A DNA stretch of 58,455 bases from an uncultured Chthoniobacterales bacterium (GCA_964652295.1 CAZZCL010000007.1:1-58455); one strand, 5' to 3'. Shown: positions 1,550 through 54,865, counted from the first letter of the stretch. Made by a program: numbers and translations. The notes: generated by a model from the letters alone, not told the origin.

Positions 1550-1556
1550 CCCGTTG

Positions 1557-19179: not shown

Positions 19180-19202
19180 ACGGAATCAAACCAAATACTG
19201 CG

Positions 19203-20668: not shown

Positions 20669-21278
20669 AACAACCGTCTCCTTGACTGAACCGCGCCATT
20701 TCGGAGGGGTGTCCCCTGTCGGGCGCGACTCCTTTGGATTCTCGCTCATTGAGGTGGTTCTTGCTATTGGAATCGTCTCTTTCGGCCTGCTCGCTCTCCT
20801 CGGGGTCTTTGGAGGGATGCTGGGCAACGCAGGTCAAAATTTCGACCGCCGTGCCTTGAGCGAGTCCGTCGATGCACTCCGCACCGATCTCAACAATAAC
20901 TTCGGCTTCGATGAGGTTTTCGATTGGATTAAAGACGGAGACCCCAAGGACCTTGTGTATCTGACTTATCGAAACGATCCGGCCAGCGGCAGCACCGAGC
21001 CCGCCACCGAAGGCGATCGGGTGCTTGGCAAGTGGTTCGATGATCCTGCGGACGCATCTCTGATCACCGACTATGAACCAGCCCGTGAGGGTCGCTGGTT
21101 GCGGGCGCGTCTGAGCCTCGCCCCGCAGAATGTGCCCGCAACAATTAGCGGGTCGGACCCGACCGACTACCCTTCTGCCCTTCTTCTTTTGAAGGTCGAA
21201 CTTGGAGCAGTTCCCCAACCAAGCGAGGAGTGGCCCGACGGCCCGGCGCTGACAACCATCATCGGAGTCCTGCGATGA
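20661..21278 (+). CDS. GspI-like minor pseudopilin
   Basis: ATG 20661 overlaps the upstream stop by 8 nt. A 26-aa leader ends ...GRDSFG|FSLIEVVLAIGIVSFGLLALLGVF. The protein is small, about 205 aa. Confidence 0.7.
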   Translation: MPETTVSLTEPRHFGGVSPVGRDSFGFSLIEVVLAIGIVSFGLLALLGVFGGMLGNAGQNFDRRALSESVDALRTDLNNNFGFDEVFDWIKDGDPKDLVYLTYRNDPASGSTEPATEGDRVLGKWFDDPADASLITDYEPAREGRWLRARLSLAPQNVPATISGSDPTDYPSALLLLKVELGAVPQPSEEWPDGPALTTIIGVLR

Positions 21279-39575: not shown

Positions 39576-41009
39576 ATGGCGAGGATGTCAACGTCCGCGC
39601 CTCTCCGGGTCATCCGTGCCCGTCCTGTTCTCCCCCCCTCCCTCGACACCTGCCGCATGAACCAAGGCGGGCCCACCTACATTTTCAATAACGTCGTGCG
39701 CAACCCGGTGGGGTTCGCCAACTAAAAACTGCGGCAAAACAAAACCGACGACCCCAACAACTTCGGTTTCGCCTACTACGTAGACGGCGGGTTTCAGAAA
39801 TACCTCTTCAACAATTTCGCATGGGGCGGCGACAACTCCATCGACGGCAAATACGGCAACCTCTCCGCGTTCCAGACGCTCTGGAGCTTCCAGAATGCGA
39901 TTTTCAACAACACTGCCTATCGCTTTATCCAAGTCTCCCGCAACCAGTCCCCGGCCCTCGGTCGCTGGGCCTACCTTGGAAATATTTATCAGGATGTCTC
40001 TCAATTCGTTTTTCGCCACGGCAACCCAAAAGGGGGGGAGGCGGATGCCAATGCGGCGGATGCAAGTGGAGAGGTTGCGGGCTTTGACTTTTCCACGGCT
40101 GCCTATGCGCGAAACGTCTTCCATGATATCTCGGGAGCCTTCGGTGTCTTCGAGCCGGACGGCTCCGTTTATCTATCCCTCGAGTCGTTCCGGGCGGCGC
40201 TGGAGCGACGGGAAGTGTTGCGTTCCGAAGTTGGGACGATGGCCGGGGCCGCCCCGCTCCGGGACCCGGAGCGTCTGGACATGCGTCCGGTCGCGGGATC
40301 CGGGGTGGAGCATCGGGGTGTCCGCTTTTTTGTTCCGTGGGGCTTGTTCGCAGCCGTCGGCGAGTGGCACTTCTTCGAGGACGAGAACCGCCCGGGGATC
40401 GTCCCCGACTATCATTGGTATATGCAGCCACCCTATCTCGACCGGCGCACTTATATTGAAATGCCCCGCTTCCCCCTTTTCGCGGCTTGGGCGAAGCCCG
40501 ATGACTACAAACCTGGCCTTCTGGAGGACTGGTGCGACGGCGCATTGCTCTTCTCCGGCCATCCCGCCGTGGTGCCACCCGAACCGCTCGTGACCGGAGA
40601 CTGGTATCATCTCGTCGCCGAGACGGATCGGGCCAACTCCTCCGCCCGCATCTTCCTCAATGGGGTCCCAGCCGGGGGTCCTGCGGTCAACGCCGCCGCC
40701 TCACTCTCCAACCCCGCCCCGGTCGAGGTCGGCCGCGGATTCTTCGGACTCATCTACCTTGACGACCTCTGGCCACTGCTCACGGCAACCCCGGGGGCAC
40801 CGCTTCCTCACGACTCCTTCGCCTATTACCGCGCTTCAACAATGGAAGCATTTCGGCACGGGCCTTGGAAATTATTTGTCGCCGGAACCGAAAAGGGAAA
40901 ACTCTACCATCTGGACAGCGATCTCCATGAGACAGCTGGCCTCGCCGATCCATTCCAGAACCCGGACGGCGATGCCAGCGCACCCAGGGACTTCTCTATT
41001 GCTCCGTGA
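39576..41009 (+). pseudogene. Mosaic pseudogene: 5'-truncated right-handed beta-helix, LamG-like domain and sulfatase C-terminal subdomain, ending in a truncated start of the shared C-terminal module
   Basis: A single reading frame runs from ATG 39576 to 41009, interrupted by an in-frame TAA at 39723-39725. Beta-helix turns are YIFNNVVRN, YLFNNFAWGG, AIFNNTAY and GNIYQDV. The LamG-like part is GDWYHLVAETDRANSSARIFLNGV...VEVGRGFFGLIYLDD. This is followed by LWPLLTATPGAPLPHDSFAYYRASTMEAFRHGPWKLFVAG, homologous to residues ~352-391 of the 53011 sulfatase. The ORF then ends AGLADPFQNPDGDASAPRDFSIAP. Confidence 0.65.
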
Positions 41010-42651
41010 TCTCGAAGTCTTGCCGAGGGAGCACGCTCTCAAGCCAATTTCTGTGAATGGATCCAAGTTCCGCTGCCTTCTGCGGGTTGGTCCCAATGAG
41101 ATTATTTGTTTCGCTCACGTCCTCGGGCAGGTGGGTCAGCCGGAACCCGATGCCATAGTCAACTTCGTTCACAATTTTGGAGGGCGTTGAAAAGTAGAGC
41201 TTCCAGTCACCATGGCGCACGGCCCACATGTTTTGCTTGCCTGTGCCAACATCCCAGACCAGCGTCTCATGTCCCACAGTAGAATCTTCACCGGTCAGCA
41301 GTGGCACCAGGTCGATCCCGTCTACGTGCTCGGGAATTGGCGAGCCTGCGAGTCGAGCACTCGTGGGGAGCAGGTCCATGGTGCTCACCACACTGTCGAT
41401 GGTCCGGCCTTCCGGGAAAACTCCTGGCCAGGAAACCAGGAAAGGCGTTCGCAGACCCCCTTCGCACATGCTGAATTTCCCTCCCCGCAAGGGATCATTG
41501 CGGCAGTCGATGGCCAGCGACCCGCCGTTGTCGCTCACATAGATGACAACCGTGTCTTCAAGGAGGTTTGCGGTGTCCAAATGACTGAGGATACGGCCAA
41601 TCGCCCGATCCATAAGTTCGACCTGTCCAATCATGTAGGCCCGCTTCCGTTCCCCTGCATAGACGCGGGCTTTCCATTCATCCAGCTTCTCCTTGGCGGG
41701 ATCCCAATCACCCAGAGGTTCAATACCCTGTTCACGGAGATACTCCTCGGGCAGTTGGGAAGTGTCGTCATGGACCGCGTTGAACGACAGTAGGACGAAA
41801 AAGGGTTTCTTTGAATCTGCGTTGATGAACTCGATGGCCTCGTTAGCGAATAAATCGGTCGAGAAGCCCTCGGGAGCGACCTGCCGGGTGTCGTCCCAGT
41901 AGGGCTGGTAGAACATCGCCGGGTAGCCGGCGCGTTTGGGTTCATGTTCTTGCAGCCGTTGGAGGAAGTCCGTCTCCAATTCCTCGCCGCGACGGAGGTA
42001 ATGAGCGGCTGCAGCGTTGAAGCCGAAAAAGCGGTCAAATCCATGATTCAACGGAAAATTCCGCAAACCGGGACGGAAGTCGCGGTTGACATGGTATTTG
42101 CCGAACATCGCGGTGCGATAGCCCGCCCCGCGCAGCACCTCCGCGATAGTTTTCACCTCAGGGCCGGGAAGACCGGGCCCGCCATACCACCAGTTGCCAT
42201 AGCGTTGCTGGTAGGCGCCCAGAAGCAGGCCCAAGCGGGACGGCGTGCAGATCGGCGACGTGGCATAGCCATTGGTAAAACGCACGCCGGTCCGGGCCAA
42301 GCGGTCGAGATTCGGGGTTTTCACCCCGGTATCCACCTCCGTGTGCGACATGTCGGCAGAGCCGTGGTCATCCGATTGAATGATCAGGATATTCGGTTCC
42401 GCCGGCAGGTCGGGCGAAGCGGATGCCGGTAAAGTCATCAAAATCAAGATTGTCAGGAGCGTAACGGCGCGTCGCGCCCTCCACAGGGTTGTCGCTGGAT
42501 GCAAGGCTTTATTATTCTTCACCAGCGTGGGCTCCGACACCAGTCGGCAATGGAAGTTCAGAGATTCCGAATCGATGCGCAAGGTGCGTGGTCCCGGGCG
42601 ATTTCTTTGTGTGAGTGGGCTGATTTGCATGCTCAACATTAGCGTTCCCAT
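40996..42651 (-). CDS. Secreted Cys-type sulfatase
   Basis: Motifs NILIIQSDDHG and CTPSRLGLLLGAYQQR are present. The signal peptide RRAVTLLTILILMTLPASA begins about 60 aa into the longest ORF, so the real start may be GTG 42522 (MKNNKALHPATTLWRARR...). Confidence 0.8.
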   Translation of the reverse strand: MGTLMLSMQISPLTQRNRPGPRTLRIDSESLNFHCRLVSEPTLVKNNKALHPATTLWRARRAVTLLTILILMTLPASASPDLPAEPNILIIQSDDHGSADMSHTEVDTGVKTPNLDRLARTGVRFTNGYATSPICTPSRLGLLLGAYQQRYGNWWYGGPGLPGPEVKTIAEVLRGAGYRTAMFGKYHVNRDFRPGLRNFPLNHGFDRFFGFNAAAAHYLRRGEELETDFLQRLQEHEPKRAGYPAMFYQPYWDDTRQVAPEGFSTDLFANEAIEFINADSKKPFFVLLSFNAVHDDTSQLPEEYLREQGIEPLGDWDPAKEKLDEWKARVYAGERKRAYMIGQVELMDRAIGRILSHLDTANLLEDTVVIYVSDNGGSLAIDCRNDPLRGGKFSMCEGGLRTPFLVSWPGVFPEGRTIDSVVSTMDLLPTSARLAGSPIPEHVDGIDLVPLLTGEDSTVGHETLVWDVGTGKQNMWAVRHGDWKLYFSTPSKIVNEVDYGIGFRLTHLPEDVSETNNLIGTNPQKAAELGSIHRNWLESVLPRQDFEITEQ

Positions 42652-42717: not shown

Positions 42718-42784
42718 GTGATATGGTAGCATTTTACTCAGGACAGTTTCTCCCTATCCCCCCAACTTTGGTATTCCGTGTTCC
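42718..42784 (+). promoter_or_regulatory. Conserved promoter/5'-leader element, copy 1 (upstream of the DUF1559-type pseudopilin gene)
   Basis: A GTGATAT box is followed, 33 nt from its start, by TCCCTATCCCCCCAACTTTGGTATTCCGTGTTCC. The element is colinear with 44007-44073: the 7-mer box is identical, the spacing is identical, and 28 of 34 positions match in the downstream block. Confidence 0.5.
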
Positions 42785-43023
42785 TCCTCCCCCCCCGCAT
42801 TCTCACCAAGCCATTTATAGGTGGCCTCACCTCTGCGTTTGGCATGGGGGAACGTTGTCGTGGTGGCGGCAGTCATCGGAGCAACGCAGTTCCCGCCAAT
42901 TGCTCAAGAGCTTTTCTCACCGACAGAGAGATCGCAGCTCCAAAACTCACCCGATCTAAAAGCTTTCTACCCAGGTCCTCAGGGTGGACGCCAACCAACC
43001 AGCAGGCTGGATGCACTAAACGA

Positions 43024-43656
43024 ATGAAATCGAGCGGATTGACCCTCACTGAACTGTTGGTGGTCATATCCATTATCGCGATTCTTGCGGCCATCCTGCT
43101 CCCGGTTATGGCTAAAGTCCGCGATCAGGCTCGTCGGACCGCCTGCCTCTCTAACTTGCACGAGGTCGGTCTCGCCTGTCACCTGTTCGCCGCAGAACAT
43201 GAGCAGCACCTGCCGGTCAATAGCCACGTATCCAATCCGCACCTCCGTTTAATTGACTGTCTGACACCCTACCTTAAAAGCCTCGACGTTTTCTACTGCC
43301 CATCAGCGGGGTTTGCCAAACAATCCTACCTGCTCGACACCCCGGAACACCGGGCCCTTGGCAACATCAGCTACTATTACTTCTGCTTTGATGAACTGCC
43401 TTCAACCGCACCCGGCAACGGTAGCGCTCCGACATTTATAGGATGGATCGACAAATGGGTGGCGCGTGAATGGGGCGACCGCCCAAGGAACATGACGATG
43501 CTCTGGGACCGGGATTACTGGTTGGCCTGCTGCTGGTTCGCGGGACCGACAAATGCCAGCAAAATCCACGGCGGAAAATATGCCTCGAATAACATCATCT
43601 ACCTCGGCGGCCATGTGAAATACAACATCGGCCAGGCGCGTGACGCCTTTAAGTGA
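43024..43656 (+). CDS. DUF1559/H-X9-DG-like pseudopilin (GspG-like prepilin-type N-terminal methylation domain)
   Basis: ORF 42778..43656 trimmed to ATG 43024. The class III signal is MKSSG|[23 protein letters not shown], with Glu at +5. [20 protein letters not shown] is typical of the DUF1559 family. The C-terminus [19 protein letters not shown] is a variant of the H-X9-DG motif. Confidence 0.75.
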
Positions 43657-44006
43657 ATCGAGGTGTCCTAAAGGGTGTCATGCACTTTGGGCGGTTCGCC
43701 TCCTTGCTTGCTCGGCCAGTGTGGTTTTCACCAAAGCACTTCGCTCGCGCCTTGATACAACGAGCAAGGAGAAGATGCCGGGCTTGCAAGATCGCCAAAA
43801 TCCTCTCCTGCAAATGCCCGCCATTCAGAGCTGAGAAATTCACGCGTTGCCGGATTTGTGCGCGATGGGTGTGTGCTCCGGCGAAGCACCAGAGCAATTA
43901 TGTTTTGCTGGATTCTTACCACGGCCATGAAGAGGCCGATCAAGTCGATCCTATGTCAAGAATTGAGTAAAGAATGTCAAATAGCAGCACGAATTATCCA
44001 GAAAAT

Positions 44007-44108: not shown

Positions 44109-47100
44109 ATGACCCGCATGAGACCGCATTCTGGTATGGCATGTGTGAAAGCGGTCGTGGCGGTGGCTGCGATTTTGATTCCCGGGCTTTGCATGGCCGG
44201 AGGTGGGCCGCACAACTGGATCGCCGTGTATGATCCCGGGGATCCGCACAGTGTCGCGGTCGCGCATTATTACCAACAGGCCCGCAGCTTTCCCGAGGCC
44301 AACATGATGCCCTATCTCTTCCCGCGTGTCGATGATGCGACGAATTCGATCAAGGACAAGCTAACCGCCAGCGAATGCTGGACCTTGATCGGGGCGATCC
44401 GGGCGCACGCGACCGAGCGGGGCATTCTCGATCAAATTCATGGTGTGACGCTGCTCGGGCGGACGCCGACGACGGTGAGCACTGCCAGCGGCTTCAGTGG
44501 GTCGGCTGGCATCACCTCTGCCCTCGCCGTGGCGCCGGGCACCACCACCCAGTCGCAATGGGAGAATCGCGTGGACGATTATTCGATGCTCTTCCGCGGA
44601 ACAGACTTTGCGGGTGCCATCCCAATGCCGACGACGGAAATCCGCAGTGATCTGGAGTTTTTTGGTCAACGCTACTGGCTCTCGACGGTCATGGCCTACA
44701 CCGGGCTGGAGGGGTTGCGTCCTGACGAGGTCTTTCATTGGATTGACCGTGGGGTAGGGGCTGATGGCACCGCGCCGGAGGGGACGGTTTATCGCTGCGT
44801 CAACGACGACCACCTGCGCAGCGGGACAAGGGAGTGGCAGATTGCACCGACCACGGCCGAGTGGGACAGCCTCGGCCTCGCCTACGCCGTCGAGGGCAGA
44901 AGCTACGACGGCACGGTCTATGGCGGGATCGATGACAACGTTTCCGAGCCTCGCAACAAGACCGGCGCGCCGGGTTCCTATCCGGTCAACCAACGTGCGA
45001 TTCAAGGGGTGATCGCCGGAGGACGCGACACGTCGCCGGACACGGCGGGCAGCCTCTATCTGCCGGGGGCCTTGGCCGAGCACATGACCAGCCTTGGCGG
45101 CAAGTTCGGCGATGTTTTCGCATGGGGCCAGATGCCGATCACCGAATGGATCCGCTACGGGGCGACGGGCTCGAGCGGCACGGTCATGGAGCCAACCGCG
45201 CTGTGGTATAAATTCGCTCATGCCCGCCTGCACACGCACTACTTCAATGGGGCAACTCTTGCGGAGGCTTTTGCCCAGGCGCAAAAACTCCAGTATCAGA
45301 ATATCACCCTGGGCGAGGCGCTCTGCCAGCCCTACGCGAAAATCCCGCAGGTGGCCATCGCGAACGTCGCCGATGGCGCGACGCTTTCGGGCAGCATCCC
45401 GCTGCAAGTGTCCGCTTCGGGCGAGAGACCTCTTGAAGCCAACCTGGACCTCGCCATCGACGGACGCGTGATCGCCACGGGCGAGAGCCTGACCCTTGAC
45501 ACCACCACCTTGAGCGATGGCTGGCACGAGCTGCGGGTGATCGCTTACAACGCCGATGCCGTGCGCACCCAAGGGGTGGCGGTGCGCGGGGTTTTCGTCA
45601 ATAATGCGGGCGCCTCCGTCTCACTGACGGGCGATGCGAGCGTGGATCGGGGTGACACGGTCAGCCTCACGGCCACCGTCTCAGGCGTGGCCAACGCGAC
45701 CGGCGTCGAAATTCGTTTCTGTGGTCAGGTGCTGGCCACCCTGTCGGCGGGCGGAGGGTCGGTCGAGATCGATGCCGACCGCCTCGGCTACCAGACGCCC
45801 AACAGGCTTTATGCCGTCGCGCTCACTGCGGACGACCGTCCGGTATCGAGCGGACCTCACACGGTTGCGGTCCATTGGGCACCCAAACCGCCGATCGAAG
45901 ACCTGCGCGTCGCCTCCCGGGCCATCGCCCAGGCGCGGTATTTTCCGAACGCAACCGCTCCCGGTTTCGACTGGGATACCGCATCGCCCGCCGCTGTCCA
46001 GCTCGTTGACGACCGCAACGAACTCCGGTTCACCGGCACCGGCGATTATCCCTTTCTCGAAGACGGCGGCGAGACGGAAACCGGCATTGAATTCATCACC
46101 GGGTTTTTGGCGCGGGAGACCGCGATTTACGACTTCGCGTTTCAAGGCGGGGCGCAGTTCGAGTTTCTTGTTGATGGGGAGAGCCTGATTCGGAAAACCA
46201 AGACCACCTCCGGCATCCATTTCGCCCCGGTTATGCTCGAGGCTGGATGGCACGAGCTGCGGGTCCGCGTGTGGGACACCAATGCACTCTCGGGACTCGA
46301 TGTCGCCGTGCGAGCACCCTACACGATCAAATTCACCGGAAGCGGCGTGAGCGACGACCTGATCTACGACTTCGAATACCTAGCGCTCGAACATGTCCGT
46401 GCCATCCAGCCGGAGACGTTGGGGGGGCCAGAATTGGCGCTCGAAGTCACCTCGCCTGGTTCGCTCGCCTTCGCGTGGCGGGACACCCTCGTCAACGAGA
46501 GTGGATGGGAAGTGGGGCGGGATGTCGCCAGTTCGGGTGTCGAACTGACAGATGTTGGCGCATATCTGGGCACCAATACTCCGCCGGAAATCCACCCGCG
46601 CTTTTCCGACGAAGGCATGCGCCCTGACGCTCGTGTGAGCAATGACGATCCCGAACGCTGGACCAATGTGCCCGCCCTGTATGCAGAGGGCGACCGATTG
46701 ATTACGGCGCGTGCTGACAATGGCGACAAAGGCGCGAATATCCTCTACAAGGTTAATGTCCCGGCAGGTGTGTCCATTTATGCCATCGTCAACTCCTCGA
46801 ATAAGCAGCCGACCTGGATGAGCAATCAAGGGGGGTGGGAGTCCTTCGGTATGAAGCCGGAAAGCGAGCTGACCCGCCGCTATGTCGTCTGGGTCAAGCG
46901 ACCGTCCGCAACCGCCGCCACGGTGGAGCTGGGCGGTCCAGGCACGACCAGCGGCATCGATGCTCACGGCATCTCCTTCGTCTTCCTTCGCGAACCGAGC
47001 CGGCAAGGCTACTCCGGTCCCTCGACAACGCCGAGCTTCGAACTTCTGGATTCCGGTGACTTGCTGAAAAAGGGCGGGTTCGTTGCCATCGATAAACAAG

Positions 47101-50100
47101 GCAGCAACGACGACAAGTGGAAGACGGTGCCGACCTGGCTGCAGGGCGAGCGCCGCCTCTTCACCGCCCAGGCGGACAATGCCGACGGTGGTGCCACTCC
47201 GCTCCACAACATACTCGTCCCACCGGGCTTCAGCGTTTATGCCATTTTCGAGGCGTCGAGCGATTCCGTGCAACCGGCATGGATGAGTGCGCAGAGCGGG
47301 TGGTCTTTCATTGACGAAACCATCGCCAGCAATCAGAGCACCGATTGGAAAATCTGGAAACGCGGTCCGCTTGAGGACCTCGAAAGCCTCGACCTCGGCG
47401 GCCCTCTGGCAGGCAAGCGTGCGATTAGTTATGTCTTCATCCGGGAAGACGATTGGCTGCCCATCGCGACTGCACCTACCAACGCGACCACCGCCGTCGC
47501 CACGGGCCAGCCGGGCGGTCTCCAACGCTATCGCCTGCGTGCGGAGATGGCTCCCGACATTCTCCTGCCCGGCCCGCACATCGCCATCGATCCTTCCGTG
47601 CCCACCGCCGACACCGCTCCGAGTGTGCACGCGGGCGAGGAGTTCTCGACCTCACTCCCGGCTCCCGCAGTGCCCCTGACGGGTTCCGCCACGGACACCG
47701 ACACCCCGTCGGCTTCGCTCACTTTTACCTGGAGCAAACTGGACGGGCCCGGTTCCGTCACCTTTGCCGATGCCTCCTCGGCGACCACCTCCGCCTCGTT
47801 TGGCACGGTCGGCAGCCACACCTTGCAGCTTGAGGCCAGTGACGGCGTCTCGTCCGGATTTGATACCGTGGTGGTCAATGTCGTCGGCGGTGCCGTTGGC
47901 AATACCGCCCCAAGCGTGGAGGCTGGTGCCAACCAGTCGATTCACGTCGCGCAGAGCATCCCTTTGCAGGGCAGCGTTGCCGATGACGGTCTGCCCGCCC
48001 CGGCATCCAGCCTGACCGTTGCATGGCGTCAGCTCAGCGGCCCCGGCACGGTGACCTTCGTGGATCGCCGGAACCCGGTTTCGCTGGCCCATTTCCCCGC
48101 TGCGGGCAGCTACGTGCTCGAACTTTCAGCCTCCGACGGATCGGCGACCAGCACCGACACGGTTACCTTCACGGCTTCCTCCAATCCGAATGCTGCGCCA
48201 TCTGTCGATCTCGGTCCGCCACGCCACGCCTTCTTTGGCGCCCCGCTGGTTCTCAATCCGAGTGTCGCTGACGATGGCAACCCTGCGCCACCCGGAACTT
48301 TGGCAGTGCAGTGGTATGCCATGAGTGGTCCGAGTTGGGCGGAGTTCACTTCCGATGATACGTCCGCGACTTCCGTCAATTTCGGCGCCGTCGGCGATTA
48401 CGTGCTCCGCCTGGTCGCCTCGGACGGAGCACGCACCACTGTGCGCGATTTGCAGGTCAACGTCGCCTACGACGACGGCGAGAACGCCGCGCCCCTGGTC
48501 AACGCTGGTGCGGATACCAGCGTGGATTTTCCCAAGACTCTCCAACTCAACGCCACAGCAACCGATGATGGTCGCCCGGCACCACCGGGAGTGATGACTC
48601 ATGCCTGGAGCAAGCTCTCCGGCCCGGGCGATATCCTCTACGAGTTGATCGACGGTGGCCCGGACGCGCTGATGAAATTCACTGCAGCGGGCAACTACGA
48701 ACTGCAACTCGAATCATCCGACGGCAATCTCTCCGCGACCGACCGCGTTCTCGTCACCGTCCGTCCCGCCGCAGGGCGGGTTGTCTATGCATGGGGCTAC
48801 AATTTTCGCGGACAGGCCGGAGTTCCTACCACAGATTCCTTTGTCACGACCCCGTTCCCGATCGAAGGTGGTGTGCGCGACATGGAGCCCGGCCAAAACT
48901 CGAGCTACGCCGTGCGCGTCAATGGCGAGTTCTCTTCCACCGGGCTAAATTCGCAGGGCAGTCTTGGGGATCCTGGTTTGGCACTCGGCGTCTGGCGTCG
49001 TTCTTTTGTCGCCGTGCCCGGTCTCACCAACATCGTCCAGGCCTCGACCTCCCGCGATGGAGGTGCCGCACTCGATGCCTCCGGGCGGGTCTGGACGTGG
49101 GGCGACAATGACAGTGGACAACTCGGAGACGGCACCACCGCCGACCGCCCGACGCCCGCTCTTGTCCCTGGGCTGGACGGCGTGATCGCCATTGCTTGCG
49201 GTTCCGACCGCGTGCTCGCTCTCAAGTCCGACGGCACGGTGGTTGGTTGGGGCGACAACTATGGCGGCGAACTCGGCACCGGGCTCGAGAAGAACGACTA
49301 CCTCACCCCCATCGCGATGAGCGGGGTGGACGATGCCGTGGCCATCGCCGCCGGCTCGATCATGACGGCGATTCTTCGCGAAGACGGCACGGTCTGGACC
49401 TGTGGCGCTGCCGGCAACAGGGAGCTGGGCCAGGGCGATGGCGTTCTCAAATCGCTCCTTCCCGGTCAAGTAGCTGATCCGCTCGATCCCAGCGGCTATC
49501 TTCAAGATGTCGTCAAGATCGTGATGGACTTGGATCATTGTCTCGCACTGAAAGCCGATGGCACGGTGATGGCCTGGGGCGAGAACTACTATGGGAAGCT
49601 CGGCAACGGAACGACCAACGGAGTCAACACCGCGATTCCTGTGCCGGGCCTGATTGGCATCGTCGATATCGCTGCCAGCGAATCGAACAGCTTTGCCGTG
49701 GCATCCGATGGCACCCTCTACGCATGGGGCAGGGCCGCCACCGGCATGCTCGCCAATGGCATCGCCGGCGGCCCCGATCGCCTCAGCCCTGCCGCCGTCA
49801 CCGGGCTACCTCCGATCGCCCAGATATTTGCCACCTCCGAAACCGCCTTTGCTGTCACCCCGTGGAGCCATGATGCCTACGCAGCGCAGTTCTTTCCACG
49901 GGCCGAGATCGACGCTGGCCTTGCCGCCCCGCTGGTGGATTCAGACGGCGATTCGAGGGTCACACTCCTCGAATACGTGCTGCGCACCGACCCGCGCGCC
50001 CCTGACCGCCCAGCACTCTATCGCGGCATCATCGATGGCGAAGAATTTGTCTTCGAAGTCGAACTTGCGGACGTGCCTGATGCCACTGTCGCGTTCGAGA

Positions 50101-50249
50101 CCTCGACCGATCTCATGCAGTGGGATCCGGCAACACCCGTCCGTCACGACATCCAATCGCGAGGCGACTACGAACGGCATTCCCTGAGGTTTTCCCTCGG
50201 AAGCGATCCCCTTTTCCTTCGCCTGAACGTCAACCTGATTGCAGAATGA
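44109..50249 (+). CDS. Giant (~2050 aa) secreted multidomain protein: unassigned N-domain, 2 Ig-like, PA14-like, FN3-like, 2 copies of an unknown duplicated domain, 4 PKD-like repeats, an RCC1 propeller and the shared C-terminal module
   Basis: The ORF begins at 44022 (TTG). Plausible starts are ATG 44067, 44109 or 44136, ahead of the signal peptide ACVKAVVAVAAILIPGLCMAGG. Ig-like: DGATLSGSIPLQVSAS...DGWHELRVIAYN. PA14-like: GFLARETAIYDFAFQGGAQFEFLVDGESL...AGWHELRVRVWD. RCC1 repeats: VWTWGDNDSGQLGDGTT, VVGWGDNYGGELGTG, VMAWGENYYGKLGNGTT and LYAWGRAATGMLANG. Confidence 0.8.
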   Translation: MTRMRPHSGMACVKAVVAVAAILIPGLCMAGGGPHNWIAVYDPGDPHSVAVAHYYQQARSFPEANMMPYLFPRVDDATNSIKDKLTASECWTLIGAIRAHATERGILDQIHGVTLLGRTPTTVSTASGFSGSAGITSALAVAPGTTTQSQWENRVDDYSMLFRGTDFAGAIPMPTTEIRSDLEFFGQRYWLSTVMAYTGLEGLRPDEVFHWIDRGVGADGTAPEGTVYRCVNDDHLRSGTREWQIAPTTAEWDSLGLAYAVEGRSYDGTVYGGIDDNVSEPRNKTGAPGSYPVNQRAIQGVIAGGRDTSPDTAGSLYLPGALAEHMTSLGGKFGDVFAWGQMPITEWIRYGATGSSGTVMEPTALWYKFAHARLHTHYFNGATLAEAFAQAQKLQYQNITLGEALCQPYAKIPQVAIANVADGATLSGSIPLQVSASGERPLEANLDLAIDGRVIATGESLTLDTTTLSDGWHELRVIAYNADAVRTQGVAVRGVFVNNAGASVSLTGDASVDRGDTVSLTATVSGVANATGVEIRFCGQVLATLSAGGGSVEIDADRLGYQTPNRLYAVALTADDRPVSSGPHTVAVHWAPKPPIEDLRVASRAIAQARYFPNATAPGFDWDTASPAAVQLVDDRNELRFTGTGDYPFLEDGGETETGIEFITGFLARETAIYDFAFQGGAQFEFLVDGESLIRKTKTTSGIHFAPVMLEAGWHELRVRVWDTNALSGLDVAVRAPYTIKFTGSGVSDDLIYDFEYLALEHVRAIQPETLGGPELALEVTSPGSLAFAWRDTLVNESGWEVGRDVASSGVELTDVGAYLGTNTPPEIHPRFSDEGMRPDARVSNDDPERWTNVPALYAEGDRLITARADNGDKGANILYKVNVPAGVSIYAIVNSSNKQPTWMSNQGGWESFGMKPESELTRRYVVWVKRPSATAATVELGGPGTTSGIDAHGISFVFLREPSRQGYSGPSTTPSFELLDSGDLLKKGGFVAIDKQGSNDDKWKTVPTWLQGERRLFTAQADNADGGATPLHNILVPPGFSVYAIFEASSDSVQPAWMSAQSGWSFIDETIASNQSTDWKIWKRGPLEDLESLDLGGPLAGKRAISYVFIREDDWLPIATAPTNATTAVATGQPGGLQRYRLRAEMAPDILLPGPHIAIDPSVPTADTAPSVHAGEEFSTSLPAPAVPLTGSATDTDTPSASLTFTWSKLDGPGSVTFADASSATTSASFGTVGSHTLQLEASDGVSSGFDTVVVNVVGGAVGNTAPSVEAGANQSIHVAQSIPLQGSVADDGLPAPASSLTVAWRQLSGPGTVTFVDRRNPVSLAHFPAAGSYVLELSASDGSATSTDTVTFTASSNPNAAPSVDLGPPRHAFFGAPLVLNPSVADDGNPAPPGTLAVQWYAMSGPSWAEFTSDDTSATSVNFGAVGDYVLRLVASDGARTTVRDLQVNVAYDDGENAAPLVNAGADTSVDFPKTLQLNATATDDGRPAPPGVMTHAWSKLSGPGDILYELIDGGPDALMKFTAAGNYELQLESSDGNLSATDRVLVTVRPAAGRVVYAWGYNFRGQAGVPTTDSFVTTPFPIEGGVRDMEPGQNSSYAVRVNGEFSSTGLNSQGSLGDPGLALGVWRRSFVAVPGLTNIVQASTSRDGGAALDASGRVWTWGDNDSGQLGDGTTADRPTPALVPGLDGVIAIACGSDRVLALKSDGTVVGWGDNYGGELGTGLEKNDYLTPIAMSGVDDAVAIAAGSIMTAILREDGTVWTCGAAGNRELGQGDGVLKSLLPGQVADPLDPSGYLQDVVKIVMDLDHCLALKADGTVMAWGENYYGKLGNGTTNGVNTAIPVPGLIGIVDIAASESNSFAVASDGTLYAWGRAATGMLANGIAGGPDRLSPAAVTGLPPIAQIFATSETAFAVTPWSHDAYAAQFFPRAEIDAGLAAPLVDSDGDSRVTLLEYVLRTDPRAPDRPALYRGIIDGEEFVFEVELADVPDATVAFETSTDLMQWDPATPVRHDIQSRGDYERHSLRFSLGSDPLFLRLNVNLIAE
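46617..47447 (+). repeat. Tandem duplication of an unassigned ~125-aa domain within the giant protein
   Basis: Copy 1 is NDDPERWTNVPALYAEGDRLITARADNGDKGANILYKVNVPAGVSIYAIV...PTWMSNQGGWE...ISFVFLRE. Copy 2 is SNDDKWKTVPTWLQGERRLFTAQADNADGGATPLHNILVPPGFSVYAIF...PAWMSAQSGWS...ISYVFIRE. Confidence 0.7.
47616..48764 (+). repeat. Four tandem PKD/Ig-like repeats (~95 aa each) within the giant protein
   Basis: The repeats start APSVHAG, APSVEAG, APSVDLG and APLVNAG. Each contains a D(D/T)(G/D)-type loop, a W..LSGPG.V.F core and an ..L.L.ASDG motif. Confidence 0.75.
48777..49856 (+). repeat. RCC1-type beta-propeller blades within the giant protein
   Basis: The WG.N..GQLG/ELG/KLG signatures recur about every 50-55 aa, giving roughly seven blades. 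Confidence 0.75.
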
Positions 50250-52984
50250 GTATGGCGATGAAAAACATCCGCCAATTCCTTGGCGGGTTCGCTCCGTTTC
50301 TCTGCATCCACCGAACAACCATGCAGATCGGAGTGCTGATGGCGTGCGCCTTCACCGCCGCCGCCGATCCGATGCTACCGGCGACATTCGAAGTGACAAC
50401 GGAGATCGAAGTGCCCGCCGATCAGGTCAAACCGCTGGGGTTTGGCGGTTGGCTCAATAACGGACCCGTCTGCTGGAGCGGCAACAATCTGATCAAGTGG
50501 GGCGATTTCGAACCTTACTCCTGCCGCCTGTTCGCGCTGGTCACATCGGTCGGTTCCGACGGTGCCGTGCTGGACGATTGGGTGCCGGACAGCAAGGACG
50601 GTTTCATGAACGGTGCCACGGTGCGGGTTTATCGGATCGTGGACCGTGACGGCAGGCCGTTGCCCGAGGCCCAACCGGATAAGTCGGGCGACGCCTACCT
50701 TGACCTGAAAAACGCCGACCGAATCGAATTCGTCGGCACCGGGACGGTCAAGGAATGGCGGATGCTTGGTTCGAGCTGGCGCGATTTCGCAAGCGAAATG
50801 GTCCTTCAGGACGGCCCGGATCTGCGGCCGCATGACGCCGTCTTCGTCGAAAGCCGCTTTGCCCAGCCCGATCCCGAGCTGCTTCTGCCGACCGCACTGG
50901 AGAAGGCCAAGCCGAACCGCGTGGCGGATCGCAGCGGCTGGCAGGCCAGCGACGGCGCGCCCGTGCGTTTCACCCGCGTCATGCACGACGAGGCGACCAA
51001 GGCTCGGTTTGGAGAAACCTTCCGCGACAGTTGCCTGCGCGTCGATGTCTCCGGGGCCAGCGAACAGACGATCAAACAAACCGCCTTCGGCCCGGCGAAA
51101 CAAACCTTCTACGGCCAGCTCGAGCCCGGCAAGAACTACCGCCTTGCCATCTGGATGAAGGCCGAGGGCCTCGCGGGCGGCGATGTCGTTTTCGGTCTCG
51201 GCGACGCCTACCCCAGTGTGAGCCACGCCTTCACCGTGAGTGAGCGATGGGAGTGCCACACCTTCGACTTCGTCGGCCCCGATGTTCCAGAGAAAGGCCT
51301 GGGTGGTGCGCAGTTGACGATCACCGGCCCGGGCACGCTTTGGATGGACAACGCTCGGCTCTTCCGCTGGGACACGCCGGAAGACAAGGAGAAACCGTTC
51401 GTCCCCAACCGAACCATCCTGGATGTCATCCGGGCAAGTCAGCCACCTGCAGGAGAAAAGGGCCTCGCCCGCTGCACGGGCGGCCTTTGGGAAAAGAGCA
51501 TGGATTCGCTCCTGAGCTGGACCTGGCACGGCGACCAGCCCTATCGCGGCAATTTCGGCATGGTCGAGTCCCTGCCGGTTGCGCTGACCTACATGGAACT
51601 CACCGGGGACAGTCCAGAGACGCGCATGCAGCCGATGCTGACGCTCGGCCTGTTCTACAACGAACAGGAGTGGCAAGACCTCATCGAGTATCTGGCCGTC
51701 CCCTACGACCCGGCGACGGACACCCCGGAATCCAAGCCCTACGCCCACCGCCGCTTTACGCAGCGCGGCCACGGCAACCCTTGGACCGACACCTTCCGCA
51801 AGTTCATCATCGAGATGGGTAACGAAAACTGGCACAACCGCAAAATGCAGGAGTTCACTGGCTTCGGCCGCCGCAACGCCATCTGGCAGGACGGACTGCA
51901 ATATGGCATGTTCTGCCGCTACCTCTACGAAAACAGTTGGCGGAAAAGTCCGTATTGGAAGCAGCTCGGACTCGAAGGCAAATTCGATCTCTACGTCACC
52001 GGGGGCTATCAGGATGGTTTGGACAAATCGGGAGTGGCGAAGGGATACGGCCCCGATGCGGTTCGAGGCGCGGCACCGCAGGCACGCTGGTGCAGCATGG
52101 GCCTCTATGTCGGGCCCAAGGGCGAGGTCGGCGAGCAGGGAGAATCCACGCTGAACGACGGCGGTTATCAGAAGTGCCTGTTCGGCTACCAGGTCTACGC
52201 ACGGCATCAGACTCGCGCGGCAGGCGAAGCCCACAAGGTCATGGCCGCGCTGGAGATGCCCTATGACCTGCTGGCCTACGAAACCGGACCGACGGGTTTC
52301 ATTGTCGGCCCCGGACAGGGAGAACTTAAACAGGTGAGCGAATTCTACGGCAAGTCCAAGGCCACCGGCGTCGCCTGCATGGACGCCTGGCTGGATGCAC
52401 CGTCGCACGGGTTTCAGTGGATGGCCTATAGTGCCTTGAACCAGGGCACCGGTTTTTCCAGTCACACCTCCTTCGGGCAGGGCCTGCACCCTACGCCTGC
52501 ATGGCAGGCGATGGTGCTGCGTAACAGTGAAATTCGCGGCGACAAGGTCAAAGTGACGGAGACCTCCCTGCCGACGATGACCCTTGTCCGCACCAACAAG
52601 GCAAAAACGATCCGGCACGAAAACCAACCGCTGGTGCGTTGCTACGCCTTCCGCGATGGAGACCGTTGGATGGTCTGCCTGCTCTCCCTCAAGGCCGACG
52701 GCGAGCATGACGGGATCGATTTTGGAGATGGCGTCACGCCTTGCTCAGTGAAGCTGCCCTTTTCGAGAGCTCAGAAGATCACCTTGCACACGCTCACCGG
52801 TGGCCTGCGTGACACCAATCTGGAGGAGTTGAAAGTGGAGCGCGTGTCCATCGATATCCCGGCGACTGCGCTGGTAGATGGTGTCCTGGCCGTGAATCAA
52901 CATGCGGGTAGTCCGGTCGGAGGATTACCTCCGGGTGAGCTGCTCCTCTACGTTTTTGAAGAAACCTCCGGGTATTCCGAGTAA
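50246..52984 (+). CDS. Secreted CBM-like domain plus clan GH-A-like TIM-barrel hydrolase (family unassigned)
   Basis: ORF 50120..52984 trimmed to ATG 50246 (ATGA overlap with the giant gene stop). The hydrophobic leader is MQIGVLMACAFTAAADP. A beta-sandwich-like region reads QLEPGKNYRLAIWMKAEGLAGGDVVFG. A candidate acid/base motif is FIIEMGNENWHN. Confidence 0.45.
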   Translation: MSMAMKNIRQFLGGFAPFLCIHRTTMQIGVLMACAFTAAADPMLPATFEVTTEIEVPADQVKPLGFGGWLNNGPVCWSGNNLIKWGDFEPYSCRLFALVTSVGSDGAVLDDWVPDSKDGFMNGATVRVYRIVDRDGRPLPEAQPDKSGDAYLDLKNADRIEFVGTGTVKEWRMLGSSWRDFASEMVLQDGPDLRPHDAVFVESRFAQPDPELLLPTALEKAKPNRVADRSGWQASDGAPVRFTRVMHDEATKARFGETFRDSCLRVDVSGASEQTIKQTAFGPAKQTFYGQLEPGKNYRLAIWMKAEGLAGGDVVFGLGDAYPSVSHAFTVSERWECHTFDFVGPDVPEKGLGGAQLTITGPGTLWMDNARLFRWDTPEDKEKPFVPNRTILDVIRASQPPAGEKGLARCTGGLWEKSMDSLLSWTWHGDQPYRGNFGMVESLPVALTYMELTGDSPETRMQPMLTLGLFYNEQEWQDLIEYLAVPYDPATDTPESKPYAHRRFTQRGHGNPWTDTFRKFIIEMGNENWHNRKMQEFTGFGRRNAIWQDGLQYGMFCRYLYENSWRKSPYWKQLGLEGKFDLYVTGGYQDGLDKSGVAKGYGPDAVRGAAPQARWCSMGLYVGPKGEVGEQGESTLNDGGYQKCLFGYQVYARHQTRAAGEAHKVMAALEMPYDLLAYETGPTGFIVGPGQGELKQVSEFYGKSKATGVACMDAWLDAPSHGFQWMAYSALNQGTGFSSHTSFGQGLHPTPAWQAMVLRNSEIRGDKVKVTETSLPTMTLVRTNKAKTIRHENQPLVRCYAFRDGDRWMVCLLSLKADGEHDGIDFGDGVTPCSVKLPFSRAQKITLHTLTGGLRDTNLEELKVERVSIDIPATALVDGVLAVNQHAGSPVGGLPPGELLLYVFEETSGYSE

Positions 52985-53010
52985 GTTTTCTGATGCCATA
53001 ATTTGCAAAC

Positions 53011-54786
53011 ATGAAGAACCATCTCATTCGCTCGACTATCTTGCGGCAGCGAATTTCTCTCTCGTTTGTCGTTGCCGTCGTCGCACTCCTAACATGCCCC
53101 GGCGCAATACCGTTCCTCCGGGGGGCCCCGAATATCATTCTTTTCTACATGGACGACTTGGGCTATGGGGACATCGGCCCTTTCGGTTCCACCATCAACC
53201 GCACTCCCCATCTCGACCAGCTTGCCGCCGAAGGCCGCAAGCTCACGTCGTTTTACGGGGCGCCGGTCTGCACGCCCAGCCGGTCCGCGCTCATGACCGG
53301 CTGCTATCCGCCGCGCGTCGGCATGGGGCAAAACCATTTCCCAGGTCGCACCTTCGGCATCCATCCCGATGAACTCACCCTGCCCGAACTGCTCAAAGAA
53401 CAAGGCTACACCACCCACATGCTCGGCAAATGGCACTTGGGTGACCAGGTTCCGTTCCTGCCCGCCGCGCAGGGGTTCGATACCTACCTCGGCATTCCGG
53501 GGTCGAATAATTTCTGGGAGCCGACCTACCCCCCGATGCCTCTGATTCGCAACACGCGCGTCGTCGACCGCATCACGGAGAACGATCAGCAGCGGGCACT
53601 CACGCGGGCTTTCACGGAGGAGGCGGTCCGCATCATTTTGGAGGCCGGGGACACCCCGTTCTTTCTCTACGTCGCCCATATCGCCGTCCATCTGCCGCTT
53701 CGCCCCGGCTACGAATTTCTCGGCGGCAATCCCAACGGACCCAAAAGCGACTGGATCGAGGAAGTTGACTGGGGCGTCGGCGAGGTGATGCAAGCCTTGC
53801 GCGACCATGACCTCGACGACAACACGGTGGTGATTTTCGCCTCGGACAATGGAGGCACGCAGCCGAGCCAGAACCAACCGTTGAGGGGAGTGAAGTCTGA
53901 GACGCTCGAGGGCGGCATACGCACGCCGTTCATCGCATGGTATCCCGCCGAAATCCCGCCTGGGTCGGAATCCGACGCGATCGTCGCCTCCTTCGACCTG
54001 CTGCCGACCCTGGTGGGCCTGGCGGGCGGACAGCCGCCCCAGGACCGCATCATTGACGGGCGCGATCTTTGGCCGCTTGTCACCGCCGAGCCGGGTGCTT
54101 CACCTCCGCATGACAGCTTCGCTTATTATCGGGCCAACACGCTTGAGGCGGTTCGCTCCGGACCCTGGAAGCTGTTTGTTGCCGGAGCCCAGGCAGGAAA
54201 TCTCTACAACCTCGATACTGACATCCACGAAGATAACAATGTTTACAATGACAACCCCGACATCGTTGCGCAACTGACAGCGCTCGCCAACGCATATATC
54301 GCGGATGTCAACGGCACCGGAGCACGACCTGCGGGCAATTTTACAGATCCGCTTCCTTTGATCAATGACGACGGCACGGTTCGCCCGGACGCCATAGGTG
54401 CCACGTTCGCGGAGTATATGAACACGTTTTTCAAGCCTGCTGAGCGTGTTGCTGGTCTCGCCGACCCTTTGCAGAATTCGGACGGCGATCACAACGTTTT
54501 GCTTCTCGAGTATCTATTTCGGACGAATCCGACGATCGCCGACAAGCCCGCCATTCAAAGCCAGCGAGTGGAGGGCAATCAATTTGTCATGGAGTTTGGC
54601 CTCGCTCCTGTCGCGGACTTCTCTGTCAGTTACCAGGCGTCGGACGACCTTGTCGGCTGGAATCCCGCCGAGCCGATCGAATATGAAATTATTCCCGAGG
54701 GCATCATCGACCGCCATGTTCTAACGTTCCCGTTGGGCAATATCTCCCGATTCTGGCGCCTTCAAGCCGACCCCGTTTCTCCTTAG
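53011..54786 (+). CDS. Secreted arylsulfatase-A-like Cys-type sulfatase carrying the shared ~118-aa C-terminal module
   Basis: Motifs NIILFYMDDLGYGDIG and CTPSRSALMTGCYPPRVGM are present. From residue ~473 (nt 54427) the sequence FFKPAERVAGLADPLQNSDGDHNVLLLEYLFRTNP... is homologous to the last ~118 aa of the giant protein. Confidence 0.85.
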   Translation: MKNHLIRSTILRQRISLSFVVAVVALLTCPGAIPFLRGAPNIILFYMDDLGYGDIGPFGSTINRTPHLDQLAAEGRKLTSFYGAPVCTPSRSALMTGCYPPRVGMGQNHFPGRTFGIHPDELTLPELLKEQGYTTHMLGKWHLGDQVPFLPAAQGFDTYLGIPGSNNFWEPTYPPMPLIRNTRVVDRITENDQQRALTRAFTEEAVRIILEAGDTPFFLYVAHIAVHLPLRPGYEFLGGNPNGPKSDWIEEVDWGVGEVMQALRDHDLDDNTVVIFASDNGGTQPSQNQPLRGVKSETLEGGIRTPFIAWYPAEIPPGSESDAIVASFDLLPTLVGLAGGQPPQDRIIDGRDLWPLVTAEPGASPPHDSFAYYRANTLEAVRSGPWKLFVAGAQAGNLYNLDTDIHEDNNVYNDNPDIVAQLTALANAYIADVNGTGARPAGNFTDPLPLINDDGTVRPDAIGATFAEYMNTFFKPAERVAGLADPLQNSDGDHNVLLLEYLFRTNPTIADKPAIQSQRVEGNQFVMEFGLAPVADFSVSYQASDDLVGWNPAEPIEYEIIPEGIIDRHVLTFPLGNISRFWRLQADPVSP

Positions 54787-54865
54787 TTGGAATCGCCGTA
54801 CCGACACACCAGACCTACCGGAACCAGAAGGCTCAACAGACCATTCCGAAACCCATTCAAAACCT

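Follow-up and report, generated by a model that had tools for sequence, protein, structure and literature searches.

The window considered here, i.e., the whole 58-kb stretch of DNA that was analysed (60% G+C), contains the genes of two exported proteins of otherwise unrelated structure that end with the same domain, as well as a remnant of a third copy of this domain in a dead reading frame. The corresponding features, all of them on the plus strand, are as follows.

39726-41009, plus strand: chimeric pseudogene ORF consisting of a LamG-like piece, a piece of a sulfatase C-terminal subdomain (40764-40930) and a module stub (Pfam Laminin_G_3 and Sulfatase_C fragments)
40935-40973, plus strand: third-copy remnant AGLADPFQNPDGD at the end of the dead chimeric ORF (nucleotide and residue identity)
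44109-50249, plus strand: carrier 1, an exported protein of 2046 aa (Pfam, NCBIfam)
49878-50246, plus strand: module copy 1, C-terminal domain of the giant RCC1/PKD protein (translation, profile, AF2)
49938-49973, plus strand: EF-hand-like loop of 12 residues in copy 1, D-S-D-G-D-S-R-V-T-L-L-E, leading into the helix LLEYVLRTDP; DSDGDSRVTLLE (sequence)
53011-54786, plus strand: carrier 2, an S1 sulfatase of 591 aa that begins with a signal peptide and ends with the module (Pfam Sulfatase, E=4e-56)
54412-54783, plus strand: module copy 2, C-terminal domain of the 591-aa S1 sulfatase (translation, profile)
54475-54510, plus strand: EF-hand-like loop of copy 2, N-S-D-G-D-H-N-V-L-L-L-E; NSDGDHNVLLLE (sequence)

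The tails of the giant protein and the sulfatase share 52 of 118 residues (44%) without gaps (BLASTP, E=1e-33). An earlier note on this DNA had claimed a common C-terminal module of about 118 residues on two unrelated proteins; this was borne out, and its translations of 49887-50249 and 54427-54786 were reproduced exactly. The profile boundaries (49875/49878-50237/50246 and 54412-54774/54783) start slightly upstream of those given earlier. Copy 1 represents the final ~120 residues of the giant protein and is followed by the stop codon at 50247-50249, while the stop codon after copy 2 occupies 54784-54786; both copies cover positions 2-125 of the A2 profile with domain E-values of 2.6e-41 and 6.5e-37, respectively. 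Using a six-frame HMM scan, exactly two full copies were found in the whole window, and the genes at 50246-52984 and 54866-57727 were confirmed to be free of the module. No similarity between the two full copies is detectable at the DNA level, so the duplication is old and visible in protein only, and is not a recent repeat.

Since numerous overlapping spurious ORFs are present in the window, it might be supposed that the ORFs are spurious, or that the tails resemble each other by chance or composition. Such an explanation is extremely improbable: clear catalytic or repeat domains lie in-frame in both carriers, and chance or composition was ruled out by the pairwise E-value, by a family search giving hundreds of homologs, each C-terminal in a called protein, and by a confident AF2 fold.

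Carrier 1 consists of a signal peptide, a TIGR03790-like N-domain, Big_7, four K319L-like PKD domains, an RCC1 propeller and the module. Its database representative P0002 begins at residue M30 of the ORF; in the orthologs P0004/12/15/32/38, both this N-terminus and the module at the C-terminus are retained, and in orthologs from other metagenomes the module is 30-46% identical. In carrier 2, which lies inside a polysaccharide-degradation gene string, the Pfam sulfatase catalytic domain covers residues 40-339 and the tail has no Pfam match. For this protein, the best relatives of solved structure are kappa/iota-carrageenan S1 sulfatases; 6prm (E=3.7e-69) matches query residues 36-420 only. The N-termini of both window carriers are signal-peptide-like.

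The third copy, earlier described as a truncated module in a pseudogene, is real and in-frame, but only as a stub of 13-16 residues. The remnant matches the sulfatase gene in 33 of 39 nt (85%) and sulfatase residues 478-493 in 11 of 16 residues; taken alone, it matches the module profile insignificantly (E=0.15-0.29). Before it, in the same frame, lies a fragment with 65% identity (BLASTP) to residues 352-411 of the sulfatase, and ~66 residues are deleted between the two. The reading frame is lost directly after DGD, and the ORF is cut short at the end of a sulfatase gene that runs towards it on the minus strand (40996-42651). An assembly made independently from the same sample shows no difference in this region, which excludes an assembly error.

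A profile built from the two copies, as had been suggested, was searched against all 1.84 billion (1.84e9) representative proteins at E<=1e-3, and carriers were found in 228 representative clusters beyond the window. In 138 of 146 carriers (95%), at most 10 residues separate the module from the end of the protein; among modules taken from genome loci, 110 of 114 end 10 residues or fewer before the stop codon. Tandem arrays of 2-5 copies are present in 12 of 146 carriers (8%), and two of the 146 have about 300 residues beyond the last copy; both features are unusual for an export signal. The genome loci were obtained by a DNA search for the core motif DPDGDGxxNLLEYALG and are therefore motif-selected. 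Among the at least 120 loci listed, about 115 of 120 carry the label Verrucomicrobiota, the cultured strain IMCC26134 being one of them, and a few belong to Kiritimatiellota and Lentisphaerota; up to at least 4 carrier loci per assembly occur among the matches listed. None of the Pfam, NCBIfam and PDB sequence models matches the module. It belongs to a large family that has no Pfam or NCBIfam model and is spread through Verrucomicrobiota, with few members in Kiritimatiellota and Lentisphaerota.

The structure prediction proposed in the earlier note was carried out with the copy 1 stretch, giving an AF2 model (pLDDT 95.9, pTM 0.84) with three short helices and six strands. According to this model, the module is an autonomous C-terminal domain of ~120 residues, in which a short helical N-terminal part bears one EF-hand-like loop; this loop and its exiting helix (model residues 29-35) are predicted to pack on a six-strand Ig-like beta-sandwich that makes up two thirds of the module. 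No match at E<=1e-3 and no close PDB fold were found with the model in Foldseek, where the matches are generically Ig-like.

The loop shows the ligands of an EF-hand loop at positions 1, 3, 5, 9 and 12 (Glu), Gly at position 6 and a helix thereafter. In 160 copies that were not motif-selected, positions 1, 3, 5, 6, 9 and 12 are conserved as D (84%), D (88%), D (93%), G (76%), N (91%) and E (86%). The family consensus is D-P-D-G-D-G-h-x-N-L-L-E with the exiting helix LLEYALGxxP; the loop of copy 2 departs from it at positions 1 (N), 6 (H) and 9 (L). This conservation and the model agree with the earlier description of a D-x-DGD...LLEY dockerin/EF-hand-like loop followed by a beta-sandwich. The loop is not paired as in a helix-loop-helix pair, one of 50 members weakly matches EF-hand_1 (E=0.009), and calmodulin loops are among the weak PDB matches. 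Judging by the residues at the ligand positions, calcium binding by the loop is putative. The D-x-D-G-D-G...N..E motif is common to the module, EF-hand loops and TSP3_bac (PF18884). The latter is weakly matched by 8 of 50 members (best E=3.5e-4) and is not matched by the window copies at E<=1; unlike in TSP3_bac, the motif in the module is single and continues into a helix specific to the family, LLEYALGxxP, and then a beta-sandwich.

Carriers are diverse and mostly non-enzymatic. In the 50 tested, 63 Pfam families were found; RCC1 propellers occur in 12 carriers, and the other domains include Ig, LamG, S8 (subtilase) and C10 peptidases, cadherin-like, PKD, beta-helix and PMP repeats. By a crude heuristic, N-termini are signal-peptide-like in 30 of 38 carriers against 110 of 274 other ORFs of the same loci (Fisher p=7e-6), so that the enrichment among exported proteins, which had been put forward as a check, is positive. 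With 63 families and a C-terminal position in 95% of cases, the tag is indeed common to otherwise unrelated secreted proteins, and shuffling has placed the module at the very C-terminus of many multidomain proteins that are Sec-exported and unrelated to one another.

No gene family recurs beside the carriers, the largest neighbour cluster among the matches listed being present in 7 of 120 loci, and no candidate translocation or attachment machinery or receptor gene recurs among the neighbours of at least 120 loci. The proposed co-occurrence with pseudopilin cassettes is unsupported: one ortholog of the giant gene has no upstream pseudopilins, and a prepilin-like motif was found in 20 of 120 carrier loci listed, a count that stands without a background rate.

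The module may be considered as a calcium-dependent ligand-binding domain, similar to CBMs or lectins, that tethers its carrier to another cell or to an external substrate, for example a sulfated polysaccharide from algae or mats, and plays no role in sorting. The predicted beta-sandwich with a calcium site would fit, as in many CBMs, and CBM21 is among the Foldseek matches as the only structural hint of this kind (TM 0.41, E=0.02). Tandem arrays are typical of avidity-driven binding modules, many carriers are adhesin-like (Ig, cadherin, PKD, RCC1 propellers), and the window sulfatase belongs to a gene string for polysaccharide degradation. However, neither a CBM family match nor a preference for carbohydrate-active enzymes was found: CBM Pfam families give no sequence match, no Foldseek match reaches E<=1e-3, sulfatase occurs in only 1 of 50 carriers, and no glycoside hydrolase is among the 25 commonest of the 63 families. 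Binding modules normally tolerate any position, whereas 95% of these modules are extreme C-terminal, and the conserved W, F, L, S and calcium-loop residues look like core or loop residues. We regard ligand binding as possible but doubtful.

Another explanation is a dockerin-like assembly, in which the loop-helix would dock, in a calcium-dependent manner, on a scaffold at the cell surface through a cohesin-like receptor, so that complexes of several enzymes or of adhesins would be built up. Type I dockerins (PF00404) are also C-terminal tags on unrelated secreted enzymes with a calcium loop-helix (F-hand) motif, a combination that is the hallmark of dockerins, and several carriers per genome would suit such a system. 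Type I dockerins are all-helical domains of ~70 residues with two duplicated 22-residue loop-helix segments; in contrast, the module has a single loop, and two thirds of it is a beta-sandwich body. Pfam PF00404 (Dockerin_1) is unmatched, and no candidate receptor gene recurs near carriers. The earlier note held that a match to a known carbohydrate-binding or dockerin family would speak against sorting; it was looked for by sequence, and none was found. A loop-helix motif of ~35 residues is also common to the module and the Amuc_1099 family of pilus-like system proteins (NF042425, profile positions 117-152 of 321), weakly matched by 12 of 50 members. The match is confined to this motif, which is internal there, the beta-sandwich is unmatched, and the highest score, 21.4 bits, lies below the 50-bit cut-off, so membership of the module in the Amuc_1099 family was rejected. 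Assembly of the dockerin type is, in our opinion, unlikely.

It is similarly improbable that the module is a passive end-cap, a calcium-stabilised Ig-like domain that shields the C-terminus from proteolysis or aids folding without targeting or binding. The generic Ig-like fold, the frequency of calcium-stabilised domains in extracellular proteins (TSP3_bac-like motif) and the lack of a partner or machinery near carriers are in line with it, but it leaves unexplained why one phylum-restricted family is kept at the extreme C-terminus in at least 63 domain contexts and why the terminal strand F-x-R-L-x-V is so strongly conserved.

This conserved beta-strand, situated 2-6 residues before the stop codon, distinguishes the module from tripartite sorting signals, which consist of a signature motif, a hydrophobic transmembrane helix and a basic C-terminal tail. 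No NCBIfam sorting-signal match (PEP-CTERM, LPXTG, GlyGly-CTERM, MYXO-CTERM) was obtained, and a hydrophobic helix is absent from the module end.

The closest analogy is offered by the T9SS CTD (Por_Secre_tail) of Bacteroidota, an Ig-like beta-sandwich of ~70-120 residues at the extreme C-terminus of unrelated proteins with an N-terminal Sec signal peptide. As with the module, there are many per genome within one phylum-level lineage, and cargo genes are scattered and unlinked to the machinery. A terminal, predicted beta-sandwich on proteins with signal peptides is just what is seen here (138/146 and 110/114 terminal; 30/38 signal-peptide-like). The module differs in having an additional helical subdomain with the EF-hand-like calcium loop and in its ability to form tandem arrays. 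The T9SS CTD models TIGR04183/PF18962 match neither the window copies at E<=1 nor 50 members at E<=0.1, and T9SS CTD is absent from the 50 best Foldseek matches. No T9SS genes (PorK/L/M/N, Sov, PorU/V) were seen in the 58-kb window, and T9SS is not known from Verrucomicrobiota. The best reading is that the module is probably analogous to, and not homologous with, T9SS CTD or dockerins.

The sulfatase Amuc0953 of Akkermansia muciniphila is surface-located, and its last domain, unresolved in the crystal, was said to resemble T9SS CTD; the authors proposed a comparable secretion system in Verrucomicrobiota (PMC13524802). Like carrier 2, Amuc0953 is a verrucomicrobial sulfatase with an extra final domain. 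The module profiles gave no match at E<=10 to PDB chain 9s8x_A (1263 aa), whose identity with Amuc0953 we presume from length and arrangement of domains alone, so homology of the module with the Amuc0953 domain is unsupported.

Summarizing these data, we infer that the module most likely targets exported proteins to the cell surface or retains them there, as a phylum-wide C-terminal domain for surface sorting or retention; we give this reading a probability of about 0.5. The carrier would cross the inner membrane via its N-terminal signal peptide, the module would then fold, stabilised by extracytoplasmic calcium, and would serve as a common handle directing or holding the carrier at the cell surface. 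An outer-membrane system for translocation or attachment, with its genes elsewhere, could recognise this handle; alternatively, the handle could attach non-covalently to some component of the cell envelope. A more specific form of sorting or retention, which we put forward only tentatively, is that the module might mark cargo for an undescribed pathway of translocation across the outer membrane or attachment to the surface, specific to Verrucomicrobiota and close PVC relatives; it would be an independently evolved analogue of T9SS CTD, recognised by its calcium-loop face or terminal strand, and recognition may be followed by cleavage or covalent anchoring. An anchoring or binding module would account for the tandem arrays in 8% of carriers better than a signal for export alone.

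If surface sorting or retention is true, the adhesin-like giant RCC1/PKD protein and one sulfatase of the carrageenan type would be placed on the cell surface, and the untagged neighbouring enzymes would stay periplasmic or be released.

The shared module is real, and its family is considerably larger than can be seen from the window alone. Its two copies, at 49878-50246 and 54412-54783, form the C-terminal domains (about 120 residues) of a giant RCC1/PKD protein (44109-50249, plus strand) and of a 591-aa sulfatase (53011-54786, plus strand). Comparison of the proteins gave a gap-free alignment with 52 of 118 residues identical (E = 1e-33), and the translations of both stretches match letter for letter the tails quoted in the earlier note, where a C-terminal sorting, anchoring or secretion tag had been proposed. 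Because no similarity between the copies was found by nucleotide comparison, they point to an old protein-level duplication or a domain shuffle maintained under selection, not to a recent repeat. Exactly two full copies are present in the whole 58-kb window according to a six-frame HMM scan, in which the two-sequence profile and the 50-sequence profile (A2) agreed. The module is absent from the adjoining genes 50246-52984 and 54866-57727, as had been claimed, and these two genes, compared directly, are unrelated to each other.

The giant protein (2046 aa, counted from the methionine at 44109) has a signal-peptide-like N-terminus and consists of a TIGR03790-like domain, Big_7, four K319L-like PKD domains and an RCC1 propeller, with the module immediately after. 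Five of the module-carrying database representatives (P0004, P0012, P0015, P0032 and P0038) are its orthologs with the same N-terminus and the module at the end; this is a distinct uncharacterised family, always ending in RCC1 and the module. The N-terminal region with the motif 'GNGPHNW(L/I)VVYDPGDP' (window 44109-45300), TIGR03790-like under the cut-off, is kept in the ~1900-2090-aa orthologs P0012, P0015, P0032 and P0038 from several metagenomes. The second carrier, an S1 sulfatase, begins with a signal peptide. Among solved structures, sulfatases for kappa- and iota-carrageenan are its nearest relatives and cover residues 36-420 only. An exact look-up of this protein gave no record. The stop codon of the giant gene overlaps the next start (ATGA, 50246-50249), which suggests translational coupling within the gene string 44109-57727. 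The gene that follows codes for 912 aa and has no Pfam or NCBIfam match.

Both carriers belong to a polysaccharide-utilisation region, the 58 kb of which hold about eight genes or gene fragments for sulfatases (95-10898, 40996-42651 and 53011-54786), GH63-like and GH116 enzymes, genes of sugar-acid catabolism, regulators, and pseudopilin genes of the DUF1559 and Verru_Chthon-cassette types. Such gene content is a PVC/Verrucomicrobiota signature. The plasmid collection gave no DNA or protein match; thus, the window does not come from a known verrucomicrobial megaplasmid.

Further features of the window
1470-2846, GH63-like enzyme, among the sulfatase genes
3990-6758, GH116 enzyme, among the sulfatase genes
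14581-22896, Verru_Chthon-like pseudopilin cassette, all matches under curated cut-offs
20027-20668, GspH/cassette D-like small protein with a prepilin N-methylation motif
20652-21278, cassette B-like small protein with a prepilin N-methylation motif
21230-22153, further small protein of the cassette with a prepilin N-methylation motif
35259-36539, regulator, N-terminal HicB-like segment fused to a LacI-type HTH and a periplasmic-binding-protein-like domain
39726-41009, chimeric dead ORF, LamG-like piece, sulfatase C-terminal-subdomain piece and module stub
42778-43656, DUF1559/N_methyl pseudopilin, plus an overlapping 105-aa ORF (region 42778-43970), directly upstream of the giant gene
57843-58454, plus strand, start of a further sulfatase cut by the window end

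The sulfatase that begins at 57843 is 62% identical over its visible part to residues 40-242 of the module-bearing one, and its C-terminal end lies beyond the window. The truncated pseudogene copy reported in the earlier note exists, but as a mere stub (AGLADPFQNPDGD, 40935-40973), which has 33 of 39 nucleotides and 11 of 16 residues identical to the sulfatase. Upstream of it, in the same frame, lies a piece that has 65% identity with residues 352-411 of the sulfatase, and about 66 residues are deleted in the gap between the two. The frame of the chimeric ORF stops at the 3' end of the convergent sulfatase gene (40996-42651, minus strand), and the stub region is identical in an independent assembly (contig) from the same microbial-mat sample. 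The ORF is a trace left by rearrangement between paralogous genes for sulfatases.

A link between the module and pseudopilin cassettes, which had also been considered, is so far not supported. The ortholog P0015 (genome loci L121-L123) has no pseudopilin genes upstream, so their linkage to the giant gene is not conserved. A prepilin-like motif was found in 20 of the 120 loci listed, or about 2.7 per 100 kb, a figure without a background rate for comparison. The cassette at 14581-22896 holds a 1532-aa protein whose N-terminus matches cassette protein A (TIGR02600).

The wider profile search called for in the earlier note revealed a large family. Exhaustive hmmsearch with the two-copy profile over 1.84 billion 50%-identity representatives gave 228 module carriers at E ≤ 1e-3, including 14 at E ≤ 1e-10. 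A word-indexed protein search is too insensitive for this family: the two-copy profile gave 0 matches in it and the 50-sequence profile only 10 short fragments. When the best 150 of the 228 proteins were re-scored with A2, the full module was found in 146, and in 138 of these (95%) it ends no more than 10 residues from the protein end. Tandem copies, two to five in number, occur in 12 of the 146 carriers (8%), while about 300 residues follow the array in 2. Such arrays are seen in representatives P0114, P0140, P0047, P0028 and P0034 and at loci L067 and L085; P0114 and P0140 have in common a ~300-residue C-terminal region of unknown nature after the array.

Taxonomic distribution was studied with a degenerate DNA pattern for DPDGDGxxNLLEYALG in one genome per GTDB species, which gave at least 120 loci; those listed come from about 91 assemblies. 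About 115 of the 120 loci listed carry a Verrucomicrobiota label and comprise Opitutia, Verrucomicrobiales including Akkermansiaceae, Chthoniobacterales, Limisphaerales and Methylacidiphilales; the others are Tichowtungia of Kiritimatiellota (2), Lentisphaeraceae (1), 'PVC group' (1) and an unclassified bacterium (1). Among these loci, selected by the motif, the distribution is suggestive, but no proof, of absence of the module from other phyla. At least 17 of the about 91 assemblies have 2-4 of the loci listed each, as counted by accession prefix. The same loci include 117 full modules, and of the 114 for which the stop codon is present, 110 finish no more than 10 residues before it. Cultured strains are represented too, 'Verrucomicrobia bacterium IMCC26134' by a full module and Cerasicoccus maritimus NBRC 105382 by a partial match. 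For a named relative close to the window's subfamily, the annotation says no more than 'hypothetical protein [Opitutales bacterium]'.

Prediction of the fold by AF2 was poor with two sequences (pLDDT 67.6) and confident with the 50-sequence alignment (pLDDT 95.9, pTM 0.84). The model contains helices at residues 2-5, 8-12 and 29-35 and strands at 48-53, 56-64, 69-76, 89-95, 98-106 and 113-120, and the conserved loop D-P-D-G-D-G-h-x-N-L-L-E is placed between the second and third helices. In 160 copies not selected by the motif, loop positions 1, 3, 5, 6, 9 and 12 are occupied by D (84%), D (88%), D (93%), G (76%), N (91%) and E (86%), and these residues give the loop the ligand pattern of a canonical EF-hand, with Glu as the twelfth residue; the exiting helix comes next. 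Weak matches to calmodulin loops, EF-hand and TSP3_bac are in agreement with this. The loop of the giant protein's copy follows the pattern except for Ser in place of Gly at position 6 (DSDGDSRVTLLE), and that of the sulfatase's copy is less canonical (NSDGDHNVLLLE). Further near-invariant residues are P42, S80, D82, L83, W86 (99%), F118 and R120. Loop conservation and the confident model thus bear out the EF-hand-like loop and beta-sandwich guessed earlier from the sequence, and a calcium loop of this kind would fit a domain that folds outside the cytoplasm.

Foldseek gave no match against PDB at E ≤ 1e-3; the best matches were generic Ig, FN3, beta2-microglobulin and CBM21 sandwiches (TM ≤ 0.43), and no T9SS CTD was among the best 50. 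Neither window copy has a match in Pfam-A or NCBIfam at E ≤ 1, and no known CBM or dockerin, the kind of match that the earlier note had set against the sorting idea, was recognised. DUF3999 and DUF5033 matched weakly and are marginal after multiple testing. Sequence matches to PDB obtained with three profiles were rejected as homologs, being motif-level only (the calmodulin loop and an 'S-x-D-L-x-x-W' blade motif). The family-wide motif E-x-S-x-D-L-x-x-W (A2 positions 78-86, strand-turn) looks like the blade motif seen in the five-bladed propellers of GH32/GH43/GH130, with E from about 2e-4 to 1e-2 in PDB; we take this for a short motif due to convergence or structure and not for homology of the domains.

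Literature searches found, among the papers covered, no description of the motif or of a verrucomicrobial C-terminal sorting domain. The module profiles gave no match, even with E up to 10, to PDB chain 9s8x_A (1263-aa 'Sulfatase', catalytic domain from near residue 480), which we take to be Amuc0953. According to a study of Akkermansia sulfatases from 2026, the surface enzyme Amuc0953 ends in an unresolved domain that resembles a T9SS CTD in an AF3 model, and a comparable secretion system was proposed there (PMC13524802). The module and this domain cannot be equated; a link is not supported by sequence, and the study offers a precedent in concept alone. With the Amuc_1099 family (MUL2 pilus-like locus; PMC13174399), the module has only the loop-helix motif in common, far under the family cut-off.

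The proteins bearing the module are very diverse. Fifty full-length carriers match 63 Pfam families, including RCC1 propellers (12/50), Ig_3, I-set and Ig_2 (5/50 each), LamG (5/50), S8 subtilases (3/50), cadherin-like domains (3/50) and peptidase C10 (1/50), as well as PKD, beta-helix, Chlamydia PMP repeats, FG-GAP and fn3; the sole sulfatase among the fifty is that of the window. Domains of these kinds are typical of extracellular or surface proteins. By a simple n-region and h-region heuristic, signal-peptide-like N-termini were found in 30 of 38 carriers with a closed 5' end in the loci and in 110 of 274 other ORFs of at least 300 aa from the same loci (odds ratio 5.6, Fisher p = 7e-6), so carriers are enriched among exported proteins, as the tag idea implied. 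Clustering of neighbouring ORFs gave no recurrent partner gene beside the carriers, the largest cluster covering 7 of the 120 loci listed.

Taken together, five features recall cargo tags such as the T9SS CTD: the restriction of one domain to one phylum, its shuffling onto dozens of unrelated architectures, the extreme C-terminal position with a conserved last strand, the many copies per genome, and the Sec signals of the carriers. Some of them are also in keeping with a terminal anchoring module of the dockerin or SLH kind. For these reasons, in our opinion, the module is plausibly a domain for surface sorting or retention. The main rival explanation, a carbohydrate-binding role, is weakened by the positional constraint at the extreme C-terminus and by the small number of carbohydrate-active enzymes among the tested carriers. 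As a sorting or retention domain, the module would be either recognised by a translocon or simply bound to an envelope component, and both variants may be considered because of the tandem arrays (8%) and the lack of a recurrent neighbour gene.

Verrucomicrobiota have a major part in the degradation of sulfated algal and mucin glycans, and little is known about how their large enzymes and adhesins come to lie on the outer membrane or outside it. The T9SS CTD and PEP-CTERM markers led to the discovery of the corresponding sorting machineries. A C-terminal domain that is spread through a phylum and attached to hundreds of otherwise unrelated exported proteins is likewise a searchable marker of shared fate. 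It may be used for predicting the surface-exposed proteome of uncultured Verrucomicrobiota, for phylogenetic profiling aimed at the partner system, and for telling which steps take place at the surface and which in the periplasm in polysaccharide-degradation loci like the one considered here, where only one of about eight sulfatases is tagged. Even as a mere binding module, it would represent a new, apparently well-folded and probably calcium-dependent domain family worth a Pfam entry.
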